Part shown: piece by piece, positions 27,377-39,621 of the stretch
Layout of the letters: every line of letters starts with the position of its first letter
How positions within the stretch are numbered: the first letter of the stretch is position 1
Translations under genes and position numbers: made by a program
Assembly (NCBI GenBank): GCA_965203805.1
Contig: OZ241917.1
Span: forward strand, 96,001 to 160,000
DNA length: 64,000 nucleotides
Reading direction: 5' to 3'
Source: Candidatus Latescibacterota bacterium
GTDB taxonomy: Bacteria > Latescibacterota > UBA2968 > GCA-2709665
The notes under the pieces: generated by a model
What the model was told of the DNA's origin: nothing
What the model saw: only the letters and a program-made list of their open reading frames with translations
Database searches by the model: none

Positions 27377-28359
27377 TTGAATTCAAGAATCCGGAATGGC
27401 TGATCGCGCTTGTTTTCGTGCCGTTGCTGATCTACCGGTACGTACGCCGGCAGCGGCAGAAGCAGGGCAGCATCCGTTTTCCGGACCTGGGTGTCATCGG
27501 ACAGATTCCGCCTTCGGTCGTGCTGAAGTTTCGACACGGTCTCATTGCGCTTCGCTGTCTGGCGCTGATCCTGCTGATTGTGGCGCTGGCGCGTCCGCGT
27601 TCCGGGCGCGAGGGAAGAGAAATCCTGACCCGTGGGATCGATATCGTACTCGCCCTGGACGTGTCGGGCAGCATGGCGCACAAGGACCTGGACCAGCAGC
27701 GAAAGTCCCGGCTGCAGGTCAGCAAGGAAGTCGTGACCCAGTTCGTGCGGGGGCGGGTCAACGACCGGCTGGGACTCGTCGTCTTTGCGGGCGAGAGCTA
27801 CACGCAGTGTCCGCTCACCCTCGACTACGGCATATTCCTGAGTTTTCTGAATGAGGTGCGGCTCGCGGAAGATTCCTGGGACGGCACGGCAATCGGGACC
27901 GGCATCGTTACGGCGGTAAACCGTTTGCGCCGGTCGGAAGCGAAGAGCCGCGTCATTATCCTGTTGACGGATGGTGTGAACAACAAGGGGGAAGTGGACC
28001 CCGTTACGGCCGCCCGCGCCGCCAGGGCGGTAGGCATACGAATTTACACCATCGGAGCGGGAAGCGACGGGGTGATCGTGACGGGCCAGGGCCTGCTCCG
28101 GCAGCGGGTTCGGGTGGAGATCGACGAAGAGACCCTCCGGAAAGTCGCCGATATCACGGGCGGCCGGTACTTCCGGGCGACCAGCGAAGAGAAGCTTGAG
28201 GAGATCTATCGCGCCATCGGTGAGATGGAGAAAACGGAAATCAAGACACGCGACTACGTGGATTACTCCGAATTGTTCACGTATTTCCTCTGGCCGGGTC
28301 TGGTTCTGCTCGGCGTCGAACTGATGCTTGCCAACACGCGGTTTCGGAGGATACCCTGA
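27373..28359 (+). CDS. batA: BatA-like VWA domain protein
   Basis: ALARP, MIDAS DVSGS, PLTLDY, GTAIG, LLTDG, TGGRYFRA. Confidence 0.88.
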   Translation: MIEFKNPEWLIALVFVPLLIYRYVRRQRQKQGSIRFPDLGVIGQIPPSVVLKFRHGLIALRCLALILLIVALARPRSGREGREILTRGIDIVLALDVSGSMAHKDLDQQRKSRLQVSKEVVTQFVRGRVNDRLGLVVFAGESYTQCPLTLDYGIFLSFLNEVRLAEDSWDGTAIGTGIVTAVNRLRRSEAKSRVIILLTDGVNNKGEVDPVTAARAARAVGIRIYTIGAGSDGVIVTGQGLLRQRVRVEIDEETLRKVADITGGRYFRATSEEKLEEIYRAIGEMEKTEIKTRDYVDYSELFTYFLWPGLVLLGVELMLANTRFRRIP

Positions 28360-28360
28360 A

Positions 28361-29383
28361 ATGCGTTTTGGCGACGTTCAGGCGTTCTGGTTCCTGTTCT
28401 TCGTGCCGGCGGCCGTCCTGTTTTTCGTGATCGCCTACCGAGAGAAAAGGCGGGCCCTCGCGCGATTCGGGAGTCCGGAACTGATGCGCAAACTGACCGC
28501 TGCCACGAGCTGGAAGCGGCAGTGGTTGAAGGCGGCGTTGACGGTTGTCGGGCTCTTCTTTGTGGTCATTGCGCTGGCGCAGCCCAGGTACGGGATGCGG
28601 CTGGAACTCCTGCATCGCAAGGGCGTCGACGTCATGGTTGCCCTGGACACGTCGCTGAGCATGCTCGCGGAAGACATCCGGCCCAATCGGCTGACGCGCG
28701 CGCTGTTTGAGATCGAGTCCTTTATCGACCGGCTCGAAGGCGACAGGATCGGCCTGGTCGCGTTCGCGGGCCGCAGCTTTACCCTCTGCCCGCTCACCCT
28801 GGACTATGGCGCAGCGAAGCTGTTTCTGGATTCGATCGACACGGATATCATTCCGGTGAAGGGTACGGCCATTGCCGAGGCCGTTCGCGCAGCGACCCGG
28901 GCATTCGGAAGCGAAGAACGCAAGTACAAGGTCCTCGTGCTGATTACGGATGGAGAGGACCACGCCGAGGATCCGGTGGAGGCCGCTGAGGCCGCGGCGG
29001 AAGCCGGGGTGCGTATATTTGCGGTGGGCGTCGGGACGCCGGGCGGCGAGTTGATTCCGGTAAAGCGGAACGGACGGACCGAGTATCTGAAAGACGGCCG
29101 GGGCAACTACGTCAAGTCGCGCCTGGACGAGGCAAGCCTGCAACAGGTGGCGGGGGTGACGGACGGGGTTTACATACGGTCGCAGGCGGGAGGCGTCGGT
29201 ATGGACAGGGTAACCCACGAAATCTCGCAGATGGAGAAGAAGGAACTGGGTTCCCGGAAATTCACGCAATACAAACACCGGTACCAGTGGCCGCTGGCCG
29301 TCGCGGTCGTCTGCTTTGTCAGCGAAGCGTGGTTGTCGGATCGCAGACGGGTGCGAACACAGTGGCGCGGGCGGTTCCAGTAA
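28361..29383 (+). CDS. batB: BatB-like VWA domain protein
   Basis: ALAQP, DTSLSMLAEDIRPNRL, ITDGEDH, YQWPL. Confidence 0.88.
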   Translation: MRFGDVQAFWFLFFVPAAVLFFVIAYREKRRALARFGSPELMRKLTAATSWKRQWLKAALTVVGLFFVVIALAQPRYGMRLELLHRKGVDVMVALDTSLSMLAEDIRPNRLTRALFEIESFIDRLEGDRIGLVAFAGRSFTLCPLTLDYGAAKLFLDSIDTDIIPVKGTAIAEAVRAATRAFGSEERKYKVLVLITDGEDHAEDPVEAAEAAAEAGVRIFAVGVGTPGGELIPVKRNGRTEYLKDGRGNYVKSRLDEASLQQVAGVTDGVYIRSQAGGVGMDRVTHEISQMEKKELGSRKFTQYKHRYQWPLAVAVVCFVSEAWLSDRRRVRTQWRGRFQ

Positions 29384-29419
29384 ATGCCACGACACAGAAA
29401 ATCCCGGGGAGTCTGCGCC

Positions 29420-30229
29420 ATGCGCCGATATCTGGTCGGCCTCGCCGTCATACCGCTTCTGGGATTCACGTTTCTGGATCCTGCTGCGGACAGGAACCGG
29501 CAGGGCAACCGACTGTTTCACGAAGGCAAGTTCGACGAAGCGCTTGAGTACTACCGTAAGGCCCAGGTGGAAAAACCCGAAGCGCCCGAGCTCAGGTTCA
29601 ATGCCGGTGACGCCTATTTCAAGAAGAACGCCTTTCAGGATGCACTTCAGGAGTTCGGGCACGCGCTGAAGAGCCGCGACCCCTCCCTTCTCTCTCGCGC
29701 CTATTACAATCTGGGCAATGTCCATGTACGCCAGCAGAACCTGCAGCAGGCGGTCGAGGCCTACAAGCGCTCATTGTCGATAACGCCGGACGATCTGGAT
29801 GCGAAGGTGAATCTGGAATGGGTTCTGGAGAAAGTCAGGGAGCAGGAGAAGAATCAGAACCAGGAGCAACAGAAGAACCGGGAGGACGGTCAGGAGCAGA
29901 AAGAGGAGGAGAAGGAACAGAATAACGAGGACCCGAACGTCGAAGCGAACCGGGAACAGCCCCCGGAACGGCCGAACCCGGAACAGGATGGGAATCGCGA
30001 TCGGCAGGAGGGGGAAAGACAGAACGATCCGCAGGAGGACCTGGGCCCGCAGAACGACCCCTCAGGGGGGCAGACCGGGAATCGCCAGGAACGCCAGTCG
30101 GCGTCCGGGGAGCTTGGCCGGGAAGAGGCCGAACGCCTGCTGGATGCGATGAAAGACAGGGAGACGAAATCCCAGAAGTACCGCCGGCTGCGTGTATACG
30201 GAAAAAAATACAAGGGAAACGAGTGGTAG
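29420..30229 (+). CDS. batC: BatC-like TPR protein with Q/E-rich linker
   Basis: YYNLGN TPRs, DAKVNLE, Q/E/N-rich tail ending EAERLLDA...EW. Confidence 0.8.
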   Translation: MRRYLVGLAVIPLLGFTFLDPAADRNRQGNRLFHEGKFDEALEYYRKAQVEKPEAPELRFNAGDAYFKKNAFQDALQEFGHALKSRDPSLLSRAYYNLGNVHVRQQNLQQAVEAYKRSLSITPDDLDAKVNLEWVLEKVREQEKNQNQEQQKNREDGQEQKEEEKEQNNEDPNVEANREQPPERPNPEQDGNRDRQEGERQNDPQEDLGPQNDPSGGQTGNRQERQSASGELGREEAERLLDAMKDRETKSQKYRRLRVYGKKYKGNEW

Positions 30230-30231
30230 GT

Positions 30232-32052
30232 ATGACACGAAAGCCCGTGTGTGTTGTTGTGTTCGCTCTTCTGGTCTCGTGGAGTGCGGCGCATGGCGAA
30301 ACGCCGCGTCTCGAAGTGTCGGTGGACCGGACACGCGTGGAAGTGGGGGATCAGGTCAGGCTTACGGTGACGTTGACGGCCAACGGCGACGTCCCCGCGC
30401 CGGAACTGCCGGTTCCTGACGGACTCGACGTGATCGGGCGTTCGTCGTATGCGACCCAGGAGCTCAATATTACGAACGGCCGCGTCGTAACGACGCGCAA
30501 CAACTCGTACGAATATTCCCTTCGGGCGACGCGCGACGGCAGCTTCCTGATCGGGCCGGCGTACGTGATGTACGAGGGCAGGCGACACGAGTCCTCAACG
30601 GTTCGGATAGACGTCGTGAAGCGCGGCAGCCGGCCGCGAACCCGTCCTGGGCCGGGACAGTCCCGCGGCGGTCCCGATGCGGGGGAATTATCGGAGGAGG
30701 ACCTGTTCGTTACCGCGGCGGTGGACAAGGAAAGGGTGTACGTGGGAGAGCAGGTAACCGTTACTTATATGCTTTATACACGCCGGACACTGCGGAATAT
30801 CGGCTACGGCCGCCTGCCTGCCTATACCGGCTTCTGGTCGGAGACCCTGTTCGACGCGCAGCGCGCCAGTTTTGACCGGGAGGTCTACAACGGCCGCGAG
30901 TACCACGTCATGCGGTTGAAGACGATGGCATTGTTTCCCACCGCGTCCGGAGAACCGGCCCTTGACGAACTTGAAGTCGTCTGCCAGGTACAGGACCGCA
31001 CGCGGCGCAGGAATCTGCTCGATATGGACGATTTCTTCGGTTTCGGCAACAGCCGTGAAGTTCGCGCACGAACCGCGCGGGTGAAGATTGACGTCTCCCC
31101 GCTGCCCGGTGGCGCTCCACCCGGGTTTCTCGGCGCGGTGGGCAGGTTCGACATGTCGATTGAGGCAAGTCCCTTGTCCGTGGAGGCCGGTGATCCCATC
31201 GCGGTGAAGGTGAACGTGCGCGGTACCGGTAATATGAACGGCGTGGGCGAGCCCGTTCGTCCGTCCGGAAACGCATTCAAGTTCTACGACCCGAAGGCAA
31301 CGATAAACGCGGGAAACACGAACGGTCGCATCGGGGGCGAAAAGACGTTCGAATACGTCGCGATTCCCGACCGCGCGGGCAACGCGAGAATCGGCCCGTT
31401 CGTATTGCCCTATTTCGACCCGGAGACAAATCGTTACCATACCGCACGAACACGGGAGGTTTCGGTAACCGTGAAGCCAGGCAGGCAGCAGGCCGCTCCG
31501 GGACCCGTGTTGAGCCGGAAAGAGATCGAGAGGATCGGACAGGATATCCGGCACCTGAAACCGGACCTGGAGTATCTGGAAGAACACGGCATGCAGCTGT
31601 ACAGGAATACCTGGTTCTGGGCGATTCAATCCGTGCCCGTTCTCGGTTTGCTCGGGATCGTCGCATTTAAACGCCAGCGGGACCGGCTCATGGGCGATGA
31701 AGCCTACGCCCGAAGGCGCCGCTCCGGTTCGGAGGCCAGGAGGCGCCTGATGCGGGCCCGGGCGCGGCTCGACGAAGAGGACGACGTGGCGTTTTTTGTT
31801 GAAATCGATCGGGCGCTGGCCCAATTCCTTGCGGATCGGCTGAATCTGCCGGTCGCGGGCATGACCCGCGAGTCCGCCGCGCAGGCGCTTCGCGAGAAGG
31901 AGGTGCCGGATTCCATTGTGTCCGAAGCGCGGGATGTCTTCCTGCGTTGCGACTACGCACGATTCGCCTCGGTCCGGATTCCCGAGCAGGAACGGAAGGA
32001 ACTCTTTGACGCGGCGGCGGCATTGATCGATGCCCTGGGAGCCAGGATATGA
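30232..32052 (+). CDS. batD: BatD-family protein
   Basis: SVDRT.V..GD, VDK..VYVGEQ, GAVGRF, V.G.GN, YFDP, C-terminal TM; start 30223 or 30232. Confidence 0.85.
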   Translation: MTRKPVCVVVFALLVSWSAAHGETPRLEVSVDRTRVEVGDQVRLTVTLTANGDVPAPELPVPDGLDVIGRSSYATQELNITNGRVVTTRNNSYEYSLRATRDGSFLIGPAYVMYEGRRHESSTVRIDVVKRGSRPRTRPGPGQSRGGPDAGELSEEDLFVTAAVDKERVYVGEQVTVTYMLYTRRTLRNIGYGRLPAYTGFWSETLFDAQRASFDREVYNGREYHVMRLKTMALFPTASGEPALDELEVVCQVQDRTRRRNLLDMDDFFGFGNSREVRARTARVKIDVSPLPGGAPPGFLGAVGRFDMSIEASPLSVEAGDPIAVKVNVRGTGNMNGVGEPVRPSGNAFKFYDPKATINAGNTNGRIGGEKTFEYVAIPDRAGNARIGPFVLPYFDPETNRYHTARTREVSVTVKPGRQQAAPGPVLSRKEIERIGQDIRHLKPDLEYLEEHGMQLYRNTWFWAIQSVPVLGLLGIVAFKRQRDRLMGDEAYARRRRSGSEARRRLMRARARLDEEDDVAFFVEIDRALAQFLADRLNLPVAGMTRESAAQALREKEVPDSIVSEARDVFLRCDYARFASVRIPEQERKELFDAAAALIDALGARI

Positions 32053-32876
32053 CGTGCCTGCGCGCGCCGTCCGTCCGGCTGCGGAGGCGTCGCCGGGCGT
32101 CGGAAACCGGCGCCTCCTCCGCGGGTCCGGTTGCATGGGCGGCAGTGGCCGTGCTTCTGCTTGCCGGCAGCGCCCGCGGCGCCGGGACCGGCGCGCATGG
32201 GTATAATGAGGCGAATGCTCTTTACAGGCAGGGCGAATTCAGGAAGGCGGCGGGTCGGTACGAAGAAGTGGTGTCGCAGGGTGTGCGGAACGGCAACGTT
32301 TTTTTCAATCTGGGCAATGCCTGGTTCAAGGCCGGCGAAATCGGCCAGGCCATTCTGGCCTATGAGCGGGCCCTGAAGCTGATGCCGGGCGATGAAGACG
32401 TGCTCTCGAACCTGCGCTTTGTGAACGCCCACAAAGAAGACAAGAGTCCCGAAGAAGACGTCAATCTTCCAACCCGCCTGCTGTCGTCCGCTTACCGCGT
32501 GCTGAGCGCCAATGTACTGGCCGTTTTGAGCAGCATCAGCCTGTTTTTGATGTCGGCGGCCGCCGTTCTGTGGCTGTATTCGATTCCTCGCCGTTCGCTA
32601 TCGATCGGGCTGCTCGTGCTGGCAGGGGTGGGATTGTGCGGTTCAGGCTCTCTGCTGACGTACAGGGTCTATAACGAGACCTCGGCTTCAGAAGCGATTG
32701 TTCTGGCGGACGAGGTACAGGGACGAAGCGGCCCCGGGAACGACTATCTGCTCGTATTCACGATCCATGAGGGTACGAAGGTGGCCGTCGAACGGCTGGA
32801 AAGCCGCTGGTATCTGGTGCGACTGCCAAACGGGATCGGCGGGTGGGTGCCGGGGGAGACGGTGGAGAGAATCTGA
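32049..32876 (+). CDS. batE: BatE-like TPR + SH3 protein
   Basis: FNLGNAWFK..IGQAILAYERA, SGP, HEGTKV, GWVP; true start may be further downstream. Confidence 0.8.
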   Translation: MTCLRAPSVRLRRRRRASETGASSAGPVAWAAVAVLLLAGSARGAGTGAHGYNEANALYRQGEFRKAAGRYEEVVSQGVRNGNVFFNLGNAWFKAGEIGQAILAYERALKLMPGDEDVLSNLRFVNAHKEDKSPEEDVNLPTRLLSSAYRVLSANVLAVLSSISLFLMSAAAVLWLYSIPRRSLSIGLLVLAGVGLCGSGSLLTYRVYNETSASEAIVLADEVQGRSGPGNDYLLVFTIHEGTKVAVERLESRWYLVRLPNGIGGWVPGETVERI

Positions 32877-32987
32877 AGTGCGCATCGCTCGTTCACAAGG
32901 CGGCGGTGCGCTCGATGCGGGCCGTCATGAACAGAAACGACCCGTTTTCCGAAACGTGTCTGTATCTCATTTGAACCAGGGGTCTGC

Positions 32988-34334
32988 ATGAGGCCTTATA
33001 GCGCCTGGTTTCGGTGTTTCAGAGGATGCGGCGGTCGTTATCCGCTCACGCAGATCATCTATGCGTGTCCGAAGTGCGGCGGTCTGCTCGAGGTGCGCCA
33101 CGATGTGGAAGCGCTGCGCGCCAGTTCCCCGAATTATTGGCGCCGGCTGTTCGATAGCAGGTATATGCGCACGCAATGGCCGTACGGCAGCTCGGTCTGG
33201 GGCAAGAAGGAAATGGTCTGCCCCGTCGTGGACGACGACAACGTGGTATCGATGTATGAAGGGGGAAGCAATCTGTTCTGGGCGGAGCGCCTGGGACGCG
33301 AGATAGGTGTGGAGGACCTGTGGGTCAAGCAATGCGGAAACAGCCACACCGGCTCGTTCAAGGATCTGGGAATGACGGTGCTGGTGTCGATGGTAAAGCA
33401 GATGGTCGCGGAGGGCCAGCGCATCCCGGCTGCCGCGTGCGCCTCGACCGGAGATACGTCGGCGGCGCTGGCCGCATATTGCGCGCACGCGGGCATACAG
33501 GCGGTGGTGTTCCTGCCACGTGACAAGGTCTCCACGGCCCAGCTGGTGCAGCCGATGTCCAACAATGCGCTCGTACTGAGCCTGGATACGGACTTTGACG
33601 GGTGTATGAAACTCGTTCAGGAGATATGCCACACGGAGAACATCTACCTGGCCAACTCGATGAATTCGCTTCGCGTGGAGGGCCAGAAAACCGTCAGCGT
33701 GGAGTTGCTCCAGCAGTTCGATTGGGACCTGCCGCAATGGATCGTGGTTCCCGGTGGCAACCTGGGAAACGTCAGCGCATTGGGCAAGGGGTTCAGCGAG
33801 TTACGGGAGATGGGTCTGATCGATCGCGTGCCTCGAATCGCGGTTGCCCAGAGCGCGCGGGCGAATCCGCTTTACCGGAGCTACCGCAACGGCTTCGATG
33901 TCTTCGAACCGCAGACGGCCGGAACGACCCTGGCCAGCGCCATCCAGATCGGGGATCCGGTCAGTACCGAAAAGGCGATCCGGACCCTGAAGAGCATCGG
34001 CGGCGTGGTTGAGCAGGCAACGGACCAGGAACTGGCGGATGCGGCGGCGCGGGCGGATCGAACCGGGTTGTTTGCATGTCCGCATACGGGAGTGGCCTTT
34101 GCGGCGCTTTTCAAGCTGGTGGAACGAGGCGTCATTCGAAAAGATGAGCGGGTTGTGGTCATATCCACCGCCCACGGACTGAAGTTCGCCGAGTTCAAGA
34201 TCGGGTACCATCAGGCGCAACTGGCGTCGTTCGACGTCGACCCGACCTATGCGAATCTGCCCGTGGAACTGCCGGCGGAATACGGACCGGTTCGGGACCG
34301 GATCTTTCGCACGCTTGATCTGAACGGCGGTTGA
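32988..34334 (+). CDS. thrC: Threonine synthase (plant-like subfamily)
   Basis: [27 protein letters not shown] (PLP lysine), [30 protein letters not shown]. Confidence 0.93.
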
Positions 34335-34359
34335 CAGGGATGTGAGAATTGGTTACATT
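34331..34359 (+). promoter_or_regulatory. Sigma70 promoter for the riboswitch-metB transcript
   Basis: TTGACA-17-TACATT overlapping the thrC stop. Confidence 0.7.
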
Positions 34360-34376
34360 GGTTGGCCATGTTCAGC

Positions 34377-34428
34377 GTAGTGGTGATTTGAGGCATATTG
34401 CAGCCACTATAAAGAAATCGCTAAAAAG
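34377..34428 (+). promoter_or_regulatory. SAM-II (SAM-alpha) riboswitch aptamer
   Basis: GTAGTGG-TGATTTG...TTGCAG-CCACTAT-AAAGAAATCGCTAAAAAG fits the SAM-II pattern (P1 stem, UGAUUU, UUGCA, 3' GCUAAA); lies upstream of a methionine-pathway gene. Confidence 0.85.
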
Positions 34429-34493
34429 CTCATGACCGGATCGACGTTTGCGTATTCAGGTTCTCTGGGGCTTTTTAGCTTCAGTTTTTTTTT
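34420..34493 (+). terminator. Terminator-like hairpin + U-tract in the metB leader (putative expression platform)
   Basis: GCTAAAAAGCTC (34420-31) pairs with GGGCTTTTTAGC (34468-79); T9 at 34485-93. Confidence 0.5.
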
Positions 34494-34512
34494 GTGGGTA
34501 CCGGAGGAGGCG

Positions 34513-35706
34513 ATGAAAAAAAGCCCATCGACTGATGGCGCCTGCAGTTCCACCCGTGCGGTCCACGCCGGCGAAAAGGGTGGGCATTGGGGCCATTCTC
34601 TCACGGTCCCGATCGCGCAAACGTCGACCTACGTATTCGAGAATACGGAGGCCGTGGACGATTTCGTGTCCGGGCGATCCCCCCGCCTCGATTACGGGCG
34701 CTACGGTAACCCGACACAGCAGATTGCGGAACGAAAGCTGGCTGAGATTGAGGGAGCCGATGCGGCGCTGTTGTTTTCGTCCGGCATGAGCGCCGTGACA
34801 ACGACGCTTCTTGGCATGTTGTCCACGGGTCACCACGCCGTGATTGCCGACGACTGTTATCGAAAGACCGCTCAATTCTGCGAACAGGTTCTGAGGAAGT
34901 TCGGAATCGCCACAACCTTCGTACCCGCGGGCGACTATGAGCGGCTGGCTTCGGCCATGCAGGAGAATACGAGGGTCGTAATTGCGGAATCTCCGACCAA
35001 CCCGCACCTGAACGTGATGGATCTGGAGAGGGTGGTTCCAATCGCAAAGGCGAACCGTGCGAAGGTCGTTATAGACAGCACGTTTGCCACACCGTTCAAC
35101 CAGCGTCCCCTCGAGTTCGGCGTCGACCTGGTCATTCACAGCGCAACCAAGTACCTGGGGGGCCATAACGACCTGATTGCAGGCGCCGTACTCGGCCCCG
35201 AGCCACTGGTATCGGCTATAAAGGACTATCGAGGAATCCTGGGCGGGGTGATCGACCCCCACTGTACCTATCTGCTGATCAGAGGCATCAAGACATTTCC
35301 GTTACGGATGGCGCGCCAGAACGAAACGGCGCTGGCGCTCGCCCGCTTTCTGGAGGGGAACGTCAAGGTGCGCCAGGTCTACTATCCCGGACTGGAGAGC
35401 CACCCGCACCACGGGGTCGCGCGGGAGCAGATGCATGGGTACGGCGGCGTGGTGAGTTTCGACCTCGATGCGGACCTGGGCGGAACCATGGCGTTCCTGG
35501 ATCGCCTGAAGGTTCCGTGCATCGGGGCCAGCCTGGGCGGCGTGGAGAGCATCGTATCCCATCCGTCAACCATTTCCTACTATGAGATGGCGCGGGAAGA
35601 CAGAGTCGCCGTTGGAATCAAGGACGAATTGGTGCGCTATTCCGTCGGTGTCGAGGACGCGAAAGACCTGATCGAGGACGTGGAACGGGCCCTCGAGACC
35701 ATTTAA
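34513..35706 (+). CDS. metB: Cystathionine gamma-synthase (plant-like)
   Basis: YGRYGNPT, SGM, DCYRKT, ESPTNP, SATKYLGGHND; GGAGGAGG RBS. Confidence 0.85.
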   Translation: MKKSPSTDGACSSTRAVHAGEKGGHWGHSLTVPIAQTSTYVFENTEAVDDFVSGRSPRLDYGRYGNPTQQIAERKLAEIEGADAALLFSSGMSAVTTTLLGMLSTGHHAVIADDCYRKTAQFCEQVLRKFGIATTFVPAGDYERLASAMQENTRVVIAESPTNPHLNVMDLERVVPIAKANRAKVVIDSTFATPFNQRPLEFGVDLVIHSATKYLGGHNDLIAGAVLGPEPLVSAIKDYRGILGGVIDPHCTYLLIRGIKTFPLRMARQNETALALARFLEGNVKVRQVYYPGLESHPHHGVAREQMHGYGGVVSFDLDADLGGTMAFLDRLKVPCIGASLGGVESIVSHPSTISYYEMAREDRVAVGIKDELVRYSVGVEDAKDLIEDVERALETI

Positions 35707-35726
35707 CGAGACAAGGGAGCGAGGCC

Positions 35727-36506
35727 GTGGTGACGCGGCCCTTCGAATGTATGTTCGGTCCGTTCCTCATGTTCGCATTGCGGGCGCCGTTACAGGACGT
35801 GCGGTGGCGGCAGAAGATCCTGGTGGGGGGGTTGCTGTCCCTTCTGCCGAGTCTGGCGCTGCTGCTCGCCGTTTTTATGGCGCTTGGGAAAGTCACCATG
35901 TTGCTGGCGCCCGTCGCGGTGGTATTCTTCTTTTTTCCGACGCTCGTTTCCTGGGGGTATATATATCGGGTCTTTGTCGACGCGTTGAACGGAATGGAAT
36001 TCCGGCAACTGCCCGATTGGGGCGCATGGAAGCAGTACGCGGGCGTGGGGGTGCGGCTGGGCGTTATCTTTTTCGGATATCTGTTTCTGGCCGGTCTGGG
36101 CGCGCTTGCCGTGATGGCGGTTCTGGGACTGGTACCGCCGGGAAAGGATCCGACCCGGCTAAGCGCGGTCACAATGCTTGTTATCGCTGCCGCGATGCTG
36201 CTCTACGGGCTCCTGCCCGTGGTATTCGCGCGGTTTGCAGCCGAGCGCAAGATATGGGCTTCATTCGATCCTGGCGCAATCCTGTCGGACATTCGGCGGG
36301 TGATTCGGGGCGGGCGGTATACACAGGCGTGTCTTGCGTTCTATCTCGCTTACGGATTGCTGCTCTTCCTGAACTTGCTGCTGGGCGCCGTGCCGCCAGT
36401 GGCGATGTTTATCGGTTCGATTGGCTCGTTTTACCTGATGGTGGTTTTTGCCTGGGTATTCGGATGGCTGATCGGGAATCGGGGTGCGGAGCGTTCAGAC
36501 CGGTAA
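35727..36506 (+). CDS. Membrane protein, DUF4013-like
   Basis: Multi-TM; WRQKILVGGLL...GY..R...LPDW pattern; start uncertain. Confidence 0.6.
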   Translation: MVTRPFECMFGPFLMFALRAPLQDVRWRQKILVGGLLSLLPSLALLLAVFMALGKVTMLLAPVAVVFFFFPTLVSWGYIYRVFVDALNGMEFRQLPDWGAWKQYAGVGVRLGVIFFGYLFLAGLGALAVMAVLGLVPPGKDPTRLSAVTMLVIAAAMLLYGLLPVVFARFAAERKIWASFDPGAILSDIRRVIRGGRYTQACLAFYLAYGLLLFLNLLLGAVPPVAMFIGSIGSFYLMVVFAWVFGWLIGNRGAERSDR

Positions 36507-37909: not shown

Positions 37910-37995
37910 GGGGAGGTACCCAAGCGGTCAACGGGGGCAGACTGTAAATCTGTTGGCTGACGCCTTCGGTGGTTCGAATCCGCCCCTCCCCACCA
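37910..37995 (+). tRNA. tRNA-Tyr (GTA)
   Basis: GGGGAGG/CCTCCCC acceptor stem, CTGTAAA anticodon loop, long variable arm, GGTTCGAATCC, encoded CCA. Confidence 0.95.
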
Positions 37996-38011
37996 TTTCC
38001 CGGGCCCCGCG

Positions 38012-38041
38012 CCCCTCCTCAAACGGAGGGGTTTTTATTTT
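38012..38041 (+). terminator. Intrinsic terminator after tRNA-Tyr
   Basis: CCCTCC-TCAAAC-GGAGGG hairpin followed by a T-rich tract. Confidence 0.65.
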
Positions 38042-38240
38042 CTGTCGCGCTTATCGGTTTTCTATCCCGTTCCTCCTGTCCACCCATGTCAATTGCAGTA
38101 GGTGAAAATGACTGCAAAAGACGCCAAACATGGATACACAGGATAGGCAGGATGAAAAGCAAAATTCGGAAAAAACTAACCTTAATTCGTAAAAAGACAA
38201 CCGAAAAATCGGCCACAAAAAGCACAAAAGACACAAAGGG
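38042..38240. repeat. Inverted pair of ATCCTG/ATCCATG modules plus a CACAAA x3 module
   Basis: CCTGTCCACCCATG (+) faces CATGGATACACAGGATAGGCAGGATG; GCCACAAAAAGCACAAAAGACACAAAGGG is close to the reverse complement of 8625-8652. Confidence 0.65.
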
Positions 38241-38263
38241 CACGGCTGCGAAACGGCGTGTAG

Positions 38264-38397
38264 AGGTCGTCCAAAGGCATGTATTCTCGGTTCACGTCCA
38301 GTGACCTGAAGGTTCCTGAAAATCCGACGTCAAATCGCCTTAATTCACCTGCGTTTATTCGAATTCACGTTCCCTGAGAACCACGAATCACGGCCAA
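38264..38397 (+). mobile_element. MITE-like family A, diverged partial copy
   Basis: GTTCACGTCCAGTGACCTGAAGG...AAATCGCCTT..TTCAC...GAATT.ACGT.CC...ACGAATCA. Confidence 0.7.
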
Positions 38398-38584
38398 AAC
38401 CTGAGATATCCGTGAAAACCGGTGGGTTTGTTGCCAAATCGGTTGATTATCAATAACATTAGCGGAGAATATATCGAAAACCATGAAGCGTCCGGAATCG
38501 TTTTGGCTCGCGTTATATTGGGTTTCAGGGTGTTCGTTGTGTTGGCGTGCGGTCCTATGGTGAGTCGATTCCCTGCCGTTACTG

Positions 38585-38675
38585 GTTTCGTCTCGCTTTT
38601 CGTGTTTTTCGTGTGTTTCGTAGTTTCTGATTTTCGTTTTGTCGCGCTTTCCGGTTTTCATCCTGTCCATCCATG
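38585..38675 (+). repeat. T-rich repeat unit forming the 5' exon of the group II intron
   Basis: ~90 bp homologous to 8779-8868, ending ATCCATG. Confidence 0.7.
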
Positions 38676-39460
38676 GTGCGCCGTGAAAAGGCGCGGAACT
38701 CCAGTGGGTGAGAGTCCCACCCGACAAATGTTGCTGCAGTCGGTAGCAACCGGAGCGGGGGTGAAGGTAACGACATCTCCGAAGCCTCCGGTGTAAAGGG
38801 TCGCAAGGCGACTCGGCGAGTATGCGGGCCGAAACGTGCAGTGAACGCTGAGCAGGCCTCGAAAAAGGTAATGCGGGAGCCGACCCGCCCATGGATCGGG
38901 GAAGGCCGCCGTCGTTGGAAAAAGAGAGCAACGCGCGCATCCAACGGTCCCGCCTGCCTGTCCGAGGGACGCAGGCAGGCCGGGGTAATGGCGAAGGCAC
39001 GTATACAAGGAGATCCGACGCAACACGGGAAGCCCCAGCGGTGGTGTATAGACACCAACCGGACGCCCGTGAGGGACAGGTCGGGCCGTATGGGGTGGCG
39101 GACAGGCTCGTAGTACCCGTGAAGCCGGGTAATGCCGGTGGAGGGAAGGGGCCTGACTTCGGATGTGCTTGTGAAGGGGACAACGGTCGGGAGAGTGGCG
39201 CAAGCCTATTACCTCCTCTAAAAGTAGATGAGGCGACTCCAGAGCAAGCTTGGGCTTCAGGTGAAGCTGTCCGGGCAGTGCGGGCAGCGTGTGCCTGAAG
39301 GCGACGTCCGTCGGAGAGCCGGATGCGGGAAAACCGCACGTCCGGTTCGATGAGCGGGATGTGGAAACGGAGCACGGAGCGGCTATTGAGGCACCGCCAG
39401 ACGAAAGGGGCGGAAACAGATAGGCCACTCCTAAACCACCGCGCCACATCTCGACTCTAC
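38676..39460 (+). mobile_element. ORF-less group II intron (785 nt)
   Basis: 5' GTGCG; domain V GAGCCGGATGCGGGAAAACCGCACGTCCGGTTC (39316-39348, AGC triad); domain VI ending CGACTCTAC; EBS1 CATGGAT (38890-96) complementary to IBS1 ATCCATG (38669-75); no RT ORF. Confidence 0.92.
38953..38979. repeat. 27-bp palindromic micro-element (CCTGCCTG...CAGGCAGG) inside intron domain I
   Basis: Same arms as 36659-36691 and same CCG^CCG flank. Confidence 0.6.
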
Positions 39461-39521
39461 TAAATTCCGTTTTGAGAATTGACGGGATGAAGTTTGCGAG
39501 CGCGATTATTGACAAAAATTC

Positions 39522-39550
39522 TTGACATCCATACCTATATATTATAACTT
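39522..39550 (+). promoter_or_regulatory. Putative promoter for tRNA-Gly/Thr-rpmG
   Basis: TTGACA at 39522 (a second at 39509) with AT-rich TATAAC/TAACTT -10 region. Confidence 0.5.
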
Positions 39551-39621
39551 GTTAAGTCTGGAAACTTTCAGGGCCGGCATTCTTGCGTGTACGACCCGCA
39601 GATCGTCGTTTCCTGTTCTGC

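Follow-up and report, generated by a model that had tools for sequence, protein, structure and literature searches.

A plant-type threonine synthase gene and a cystathionine γ-synthase gene with a SAM-II leader form a candidate O-phosphohomoserine branch point in a Latescibacterota bacterium

RESULTS

The thrC-CGS locus

A 64,000-nucleotide (nt) stretch of the genome of a Candidatus Latescibacterota bacterium (assembly GCA_965203805.1, contig OZ241917.1, positions 96,001 to 160,000 of the forward strand; hereafter the window, from whose first letter all plain coordinates are counted) carries on the same strand the genes for a plant-type threonine synthase (TS) and a homologue of cystathionine γ-synthase (CGS), separated by a leader with a predicted S-adenosylmethionine (SAM)-binding riboswitch of the SAM-II class. 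The first gene, thrC (32988 to 34334, + strand), encodes a 448-amino-acid (aa) protein with the pyridoxal phosphate (PLP)-lysine motif HTGSFKD and was recognized from its open reading frame (ORF), the TIGR00260 and PALP models, and its match to the plant structure 1e5x. The second (34513 to 35706, + strand) encodes 397 aa with the PLP-lysine in HSATKYLGGH and was recognized from PF01053, its match to tobacco CGS, and its position in a tree. The source genome is a single contig of 5.87 Mb that is 99.81% complete by marker genes and was treated as complete; the record titles of its nearest relatives read Latescibacterota.

In plants, CGS uses O-phosphohomoserine (OPH), for which it competes with SAM-activated TS, whereas typical bacteria use acylated homoserine. 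The initial annotation of the locus had proposed that this bacterium possesses the plant type of branch point and makes methionine from OPH, with the riboswitch playing the part of the SAM feedback that plants exert through the MTO1 region. The ThrC and CGS motifs on which that proposal was built were all present in the ORF translations where it had placed them. Its implied start of the CGS ORF, at 34432, in contrast, falls within the riboswitch aptamer, and translation from there would read through the terminator described below. This start was rejected because the closest homologues are 397 aa long and because the leader alignment shows indels of varying length. The CGS gene most likely begins at the ATG at 34513, which has the Shine-Dalgarno sequence GGAGGAGG upstream (34503 to 34510, + strand, read by eye from the sequence) and gives a product of 397 aa. 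The CGS protein queries used here were started at 34510 and are therefore one residue longer than this product.

Both enzymes resemble their plant counterparts

Among all solved structures, ThrC matched Arabidopsis TS (1e5x) with 571.4 bits (E = 1.3e-170) over query residues 3 to 440, bearing out its proposed likeness to the plant enzyme. The next solved TS, all bacterial enzymes, reached at most 182.5 bits and aligned only from ThrC residue 77 onward. The N-terminal domain of plant TS, absent from the other solved TS, is thus present in ThrC, as the alignment from residue 3 indicates. The family assignment was confident (TIGR00260, 216.8 bits with the cut-off at 167.1; PALP, 194.1 bits), and ThrC was 54 to 62% identical to four plant TS fragments. 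The plant side of the quick maximum-likelihood TS tree consisted of partial sequences of Bidens, Populus, Pteridium, and Chara and a row labelled Prorocentrum; these plant rows formed one group (100%) nested within the bacterial plant-type clade, with no resolved placement among the bacterial subgroups. Neither this tree nor the CGS tree below includes the solved plant chains; plants are represented in both by database proteins, of which several are partial sequences or over-long gene models.

ThrC carries four cysteines (C10, C14, C27, and C30) in an N-terminal zinc-ribbon-like motif (33015 to 33077, + strand, from the alignment), which are kept in all 29 rows having an N-terminus, while the plant TS rows have no Cys at the four columns. 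The cysteines may bind a metal, and their retention in the bacterial enzymes and absence from the plant rows would fit a bacterial ancestral state. By analogy with the plant enzyme, ThrC may be activated by SAM.

The CGS protein likewise had a plant enzyme as its best match among all solved structures, tobacco CGS (1i41/1qgn), with 392.7 bits (E = 1.7e-116) and an alignment starting at residue 15, compared to at most 312.4 bits for methionine γ-lyases and 250.4 bits for Escherichia coli MetB. PF01053 covered residues 15 to 396 (432.7 bits), and the PLP-lysine motif HSATKYLGGH aligned with HSATKFLGGH of the tobacco enzyme. The protein fell below every NCBIfam equivalog cut-off, the best model being NF006097 (391.4 bits against 600), and failed that of TIGR02080, the E. 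coli-type MetB model (313.5 bits against 504.55). It was 46 to 47% identical to two plant CGS domains, P0291 and P0292, which lie within over-long gene models of Hibiscus and Brassica. A quick maximum-likelihood tree placed it in a 53-row clade that holds both plant rows and is split at 98% SH-aLRT (Shimodaira-Hasegawa-like approximate likelihood ratio test) support from 10 rows in which the PLP-stacking tyrosine is followed by two glycines (Tyr-Gly-Gly). Within this clade, three bacterial rows, of which two bear the labels Geobacter and Spirochaetaceae, formed the sister group of the plant rows (96%). Both the score against tobacco CGS and the tree thus agree with the initial annotation in placing the protein beside plant CGS rather than among the Tyr-Gly-Gly enzymes. 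The N-terminal regulatory extension with the MTO1 region is missing from the 397-aa bacterial CGS; in the plant proteins the domain begins at residues 137 to 148.

Residues after the PLP-stacking tyrosine and natural fusions

The PLP-stacking tyrosine of the window CGS is followed by Arg-Lys in the motif DCYRKT, which lies at 34852 to 34869 (+ strand) also when counted from the ATG at 34513 and resembles plant CGS, for which rows P0291 and P0292 both read DCYRKTR. E. coli MetB has DCYGG according to the initial annotation. Tyr-Gly-Gly was seen in the genome's own PF01053 paralogue and in several classes of fused homologues. These came from a search among longer proteins, with 120 proteins listed, of which 64 were TS-CGS fusions (PALP plus PF01053, about 848 aa), some of them named Nitrospira/Nitrospirota. 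The TS part of all 64 listed fusions was 62 to 68% identical to the window ThrC, and their CGS domain carried Tyr-Arg in every case (63 YRQT, 1 YRRT). Tyr-Gly-Gly, on the other hand, was found in all 11 listed CGS-family domains fused to a MetX-like alpha/beta-hydrolase, in all 8 listed homoserine-dehydrogenase (Hom) fusions, and in all 10 listed fusions to a non-TS PALP domain. Fusions that unite competitors for a single substrate, as here, are of an unusual kind.

Two further Tyr-Arg CGS domains had other partners, a flavin-oxidoreductase-like region in P0289 (995 aa) and a radical-SAM domain in P0290 (730 aa). Long stop-to-stop frames at the studied loci were rejected as fusions: the two genes use different frames at these loci, and the long frames are high-GC artifacts. 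Genuine fusions were obtained only from the longer-protein search.

Conservation of the gene pair

We collected 80 loci encoding CGS relatives with 49 to 91% identity to the window CGS. A plant-type thrC (63 to 89% identity) lay directly upstream of the CGS gene on the same strand in 30 of the 80, mostly with a gap of -37 to +76 nt. The record titles name Latescibacterota, Methylomirabilota/Rokubacteria, Binatia, and "Deltaproteobacteria." The occurrence of plant-type TS together with CGS in a bacterium, as first annotated, stands, but not as a curiosity of one bacterium: the combination is widespread in Latescibacterota, Methylomirabilota, the Nitrospirota-named fusions, and others.

The leader between thrC and the CGS gene

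The 178-nt spacer of the window is special to its order. It contains a SAM-II (SAM_alpha) aptamer, RF00521, at 34370 to 34445 (+ strand), which scored 48.9 bits (gathering score, 36) and lies between thrC and the CGS gene, positioned to act only on the latter. The aptamer was found at the same place in six of six close relatives (L014 to L019; 39.7 to 46.2 bits) and in none of the 10 more distant thrC-CGS loci scanned. Elsewhere in the genome no SAM-II element was detected among the 150 of 725 candidates that were scored, and control genomes gave no match.

Downstream of the aptamer lies an intrinsic-terminator-like hairpin (34465 to 34484) followed by nine T residues (34485 to 34493), identified by a terminator scan (34465 to 34493, + strand). 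The hairpin and T-run were present at the matching position in seven of seven aligned leaders; terminator-like sites across the region numbered 3 compared to a shuffle mean of 2.8, that is, no excess. In the ligand-free fold centroid, the 3′ strand of the aptamer (34420 to 34431) pairs over 12 bp with 34468 to 34479, forming a predicted antiterminator (34420 to 34479, + strand). Because the latter segment comprises the terminator's 5′ arm and loop together with the beginning of the 3′ arm, antiterminator and terminator would be mutually exclusive. The terminator loop holds C-TTTT(T)-[AG]-GC, the complement of GCUAAAAAG, in seven of seven aligned leaders; the 3′ strand of the aptamer is invariant in them, so that no covariation can be counted for the antiterminator pairing.

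At the upstream edge of the leader, a sigma-70-like site, TTGACA-17-TACATT (34331 to 34359, + strand), matches at 10 of 12 positions, its -35 box overlapping the thrC stop codon (34332 to 34334). It is the only promoter-like site within 32700 to 35900, compared to a mean of 0.8 in shuffled sequence, and TTGACA- and TACATT-like boxes align across the relatives' leaders, suggesting that it may serve as a promoter.

RNA-library contigs from two studies overlap portions of both thrC and the CGS gene. Two of these contigs, X18 (34336 to 34625, 3 differences) and X19 (34353 to 34859, from a relative), span the leader and continue into the CGS gene. They are weak evidence of expression because DNA carry-over is possible; such contigs show no starts, ends, or levels, and stretches they leave uncovered carry no meaning.

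Methionine genes in the source genome

The complete genome contained no match to metA (TIGR01001) and only a 20-bit match to metX (TIGR01392), whereas thrB was present (283 bits against a cut-off of 168), the combination that the initial annotation's reading would predict. Neither the alternative kinase HomK (TIGR02535) nor the DUF39/HcyBio route to homocysteine (PF01837) was found in it. Real PF01053 genes numbered only two, the CGS gene and one at C1:4213749-4214867; the latter encodes 379 aa with DCLYGGT and scores best against methionine γ-lyase models while reaching no curated cut-off. No full-length MetH was found in the genome. A cluster at C1:5038280-5044931 holds separate genes for cobalamin-binding, pterin-binding, and homocysteine-methyltransferase domains, and a further set of about 10 homocysteine S-methyltransferase-like domains is spread across the genome at nine or more other places.

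Distribution of homoserine acyltransferases

MetA and MetX were searched in 50 of the 80 genomes with CGS-related loci. In the 25 of these that combine a Tyr-Arg CGS with an adjacent thrC, MetA was found in none, and the MetX search gave nothing or less than 105 bits in 18. A sample of 100 genomes from the phylum included the window's own order: of its 35 sampled genomes, 32 encode this CGS (at least 74% identity), none has MetX, and one has MetA, the single MetA-bearing genome being one that does not encode this CGS. Family f7 showed the reverse, with MetX in five of five genomes and CGS in none of the five, and family f9 had MetX in 10 of 13. In family f3, all 10 inspected loci had a Tyr-Arg CGS with adjacent thrC. 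CGS and acyltransferases are thus complementary in their distribution, strongly so in the window's order, although not universally.

An association between adjacency or motif and missing acyltransferases reached Fisher P values of 0.004 and 8.6e-5, which are inflated because the tree contains few independent changes. A phylogenetically corrected version of the test was dropped, as one to two independent contrasts leave it no power.

Other features of the window

Upstream of thrC, at 28328 to 32876, a run of ORFs encodes a large membrane protein along with von Willebrand-type and TPR (tetratricopeptide)-repeat proteins; on visual inspection of the translations alone, it resembles a BatA-BatD-like aerotolerance operon. 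Downstream, parts of a group II intron recognized by Rfam lie between two tRNA genes at 37993 to 39621 (D1 to D4 at 38702 to 38839, domain V/VI at 39314 to 39460). The same two tRNA genes are 297 nt apart in the 91%-identical relative L014 compared to 1629 nt in the window, and therefore about 1.3 kb has been inserted into the tRNA cluster of this genome, apparently as an intron without a reverse-transcriptase ORF. Several studies have deposited public runs, labelled as sponge, coral, or marine metagenomes, that contain DNA near-identical to 32988 to 35706, and an association of the organism with marine invertebrates is possible.

DISCUSSION

A predicted branch point at O-phosphohomoserine

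Taken together, the data make it probable that the locus encodes an OPH-dependent transsulfuration under riboswitch control, a bacterial version of the plant branch point. The in silico tests that had been named beforehand as able to refute this reading all came out in favor of it. In the scheme we envisage, ThrB, encoded elsewhere in the genome, would make OPH from homoserine, and the plant-type TS would turn OPH into threonine. The CGS, with OPH as its likely substrate, would swap the phosphate for sulfur, with cysteine as the most likely donor and cystathionine as the product, and would thereby commit the flow to homocysteine, methionine, and SAM. When SAM is lacking, the 3′ strand of the aptamer would pair with the region of the terminator loop and transcription would continue. 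When SAM is bound, the same strand would be locked in the pseudoknot, the terminator would form, and CGS expression would fall; the terminator would at the same time stop read-through from thrC. With CGS low, OPH would be directed to threonine. Gene identities, the aptamer, the synteny and fusions, the lack of metA and metX, and the presence of thrB are established by the sequence data, whereas OPH as substrate, cysteine as sulfur donor, the switching mechanism, and any activation of TS by SAM are predictions.

A number of observations weigh against this reading. No enzyme assay was found for any bacterial member of the group. In tobacco CGS, the residues that follow the PLP-stacking tyrosine are reported to bind the phosphate; the second of these basic positions varies, with YRM, YRD, and YRQ all found. 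One of the 30 gene pairs, L075 (4001-5173), joins a thrC of 63% identity to a CGS with Tyr-Lys-Lys, the sole exception among them. A Tyr-Lys protein from a MetX-bearing genome also matched tobacco CGS best (370 against 356 bits), as did a Tyr-Arg protein from a MetX-bearing Chloroflexota genome (386 against 321 bits). The Tyr-Lys and Tyr-Gly members of the plant-like clade live with MetX or MetA, and therefore membership of that clade does not fix the substrate. Likeness to plant CGS is necessary for OPH use to be claimed but insufficient alone. Other points that count against OPH-dependent transsulfuration lead to explicit alternatives, the main ones being direct sulfhydrylation of OPH and a parallel route of the MetM kind.

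No clear cystathionine β-lyase (MetC) was found in the genome, and the one other PF01053 gene falls short of every curated cut-off. If the cystathionine made by a CGS had no lyase to receive it, the same enzyme might act as an OPH sulfhydrylase, taking sulfide directly to homocysteine in one step and making cystathionine and a β-lyase unneeded. Enzymes of the PF01053 family are often promiscuous between thiol and sulfide. However, the closest characterized relative forms cystathionine, and the second PF01053 paralogue, whose best β-lyase model gave 309 bits, below cut-off, could itself be the β-lyase. We regard direct sulfhydrylation as unlikely.

The second alternative arises from the number of threonine synthase homologues. 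Besides the plant-type gene, the genome has three extra ThrC-family genes, L096, L097, and L098 (C1:574119-575096, 371207-372151, and 2921748-2922725), each with an N-terminal CxxC...CxxC motif, for a total of four; each of five complete relatives has three or four. L096 can be assigned with confidence to a different threonine synthase subtype (NF006050, 605 bits against 303), and thus the plant-type TS is not the sole candidate for threonine synthesis; the other two pass no subtype cut-off. A MetM/MetO thiocarboxylate route from OPH is on record in Streptomyces, as cited in the GapMind 2026 preprint and in PMC12172450. It is likewise a bacterial path from OPH to homocysteine, but one that uses a threonine-synthase homologue and a sulfur-carrier protein where the window system uses a PF01053 enzyme. 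One of the extra ThrC paralogues could be such a MetM-type homocysteine synthase, in which case homocysteine would come mainly by this or another OPH route and the CGS-like gene would be secondary or serve another purpose. At L096, the only one of the three whose surroundings were inspected, there is no sulfur-carrier-like gene, the neighboring 129-aa ORF having no Pfam match. Moreover, the sole SAM riboswitch detected among the scored candidates would act on the CGS gene, as expected for the committed methionine step. A main route of the MetM kind seems improbable to us.

A further alternative retains the usual bacterial chemistry. The enzyme would use acyl-homoserine supplied by an acyltransferase beyond the reach of the MetA and MetX models, and its adjacency to thrC would reflect no more than co-location of aspartate-family genes. 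Several distributional findings can be cited for it. MetX-like genes occurred in 7 of the 25 genomes with a Tyr-Arg CGS and adjacent thrC (2 above 300 bits, 5 at 150 to 250 bits). The 13 genomes with a Tyr-Arg CGS and no adjacent thrC included 3 with MetA, 3 with MetX, and 7 with neither; in total, 13 of 38 genomes combine a Tyr-Arg enzyme with a MetX- or MetA-like gene. Genomes with Tyr-Lys or Tyr-Gly enzymes had MetX or MetA in 12 of 12 cases, and the five inspected f9 loci, all Tyr-Gly with no thrC beside them, all co-occurred with MetX or MetA; these relatives in the clade evidently live with a supply of acyl-homoserine. Two further findings count against the main reading: in family f3, 6 of the 10 inspected genomes had a MetX-like gene of 350 to 430 bits, and on the tree adjacency changes only twice and the motif once. 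Against the acyl-homoserine alternative stand the absence of metA and metX matches from the source genome, the near-complete lack of both from the 35 sampled genomes of its order (no MetX in 35, no MetA in 34), and the motifs of the TS-fused and MetX-fused domains, which differ without exception (64 of 64 against 11 of 11). Use of acyl-homoserine by the window enzyme thus appears quite improbable.

The six f3 loci that pair thrC and CGS with a MetX-like gene (L113 to L118, in G095, G114, G117, G131, G132, and G140) carry a version that scores 350 to 430 bits, compared to 440 to 480 bits in f7 and f9. It could represent a MetX subtype acting on a different substrate, or belong to a second methionine route.

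That the gene encodes a catabolic lyase, i.e., a methionine γ-lyase or cystathionine γ-lyase, is very improbable, since although methionine γ-lyases are the second-best matches (TIGR01328, 382 bits, below cut-off; solved lyases, 312 bits), the gene is linked or fused to thrC and falls in the plant CGS clade, and a SAM-II aptamer with terminator fits the SAM-off control of a methionine-synthesis gene.

Relation to known systems

Read as OPH-dependent transsulfuration, the system has its nearest parallel in the plant branch point. Arabidopsis TS1 (1e5x/2c2b/2c2g) and tobacco CGS (1qgn/1i41) are its closest solved relatives over the full catalytic length, the DCYRKT motif is common to the bacterial and plant CGS, and ThrB is the only homoserine-activating enzyme found in the bacterial genome. 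As in plants, SAM-dependent down-regulation is predicted to act on CGS only. The feedback device differs, being a predicted SAM-II riboswitch with terminator in the bacterium and, in plants, the MTO1 region present in both mRNA and nascent peptide of CGS. The bacterial CGS consists of the catalytic domain only, without an N-terminal extension; the bacterial TS has four N-terminal cysteines that the plant rows lack; and the bacterial genes are adjacent or, in other phyla, fused.

The enterobacterial MetA/MetB (1cs1)/MetC route through O-succinylhomoserine has the PF01053 fold and the γ-replacement chemistry in common with the window system. The window CGS nevertheless scores 250 bits against E. 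coli MetB compared to 393 for the plant enzyme, has Tyr-Arg-Lys, and comes from a genome with no MetA. The SAM-II riboswitches of Proteobacteria (RF00521), like the present one, place the aptamer in the leader of a methionine-synthesis gene. Here, in contrast, the host phylum is Latescibacterota and the predicted expression platform is a terminator with a loop complementary to the 3′ strand of the aptamer, while the usual SAM-II mode is direct masking of the ribosome-binding site.

The GapMind 2026 preprint gives bacterial routes including MetM/MetO from OPH, and the passages of it returned by term searches contain no mention of a CGS-based OPH route. We likewise found no description of a bacterial CGS using OPH in open-access full text, subscription papers and supplements lying outside the scope of that search.

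Implications for the plant pathway and for bacterial methionine synthesis

The suggestion that the locus may bear on the origin of the plant pathway gains from the trees, in which plant TS and plant CGS each nest inside bacterial clades. Both plant enzymes are non-cyanobacterial in origin according to Reyes-Prieto and Moustafa (2012, PMC3518814). A broader proposal can be put forward tentatively, and we hold it to be possible rather than likely: OPH transsulfuration would be a widespread, unrecognized bacterial pathway in which TS and CGS, linked or fused, serve as one branch-point valve and TS is activated by SAM as in plants, and plants would have inherited both enzymes from such a linked pair, subsequently losing the TS cysteines and replacing the riboswitch with MTO1.

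The natural TS-CGS fusions are worth studying in their own right. If the predicted use of OPH is true, a methionine route taught as plant specific would be a common bacterial one, and the apparent metA/metX gap in genome-based predictions of auxotrophy would be filled for several uncultured phyla. The residues after the PLP-stacking tyrosine would then provide a sequence marker of substrate class, Tyr-Arg as opposed to Tyr-Gly-Gly, Tyr-Lys, or Tyr-Gly. Plant biochemists would gain easily expressed bacterial relatives of the SAM-regulated TS/CGS pair, and the origin of the plant pathway would become testable.

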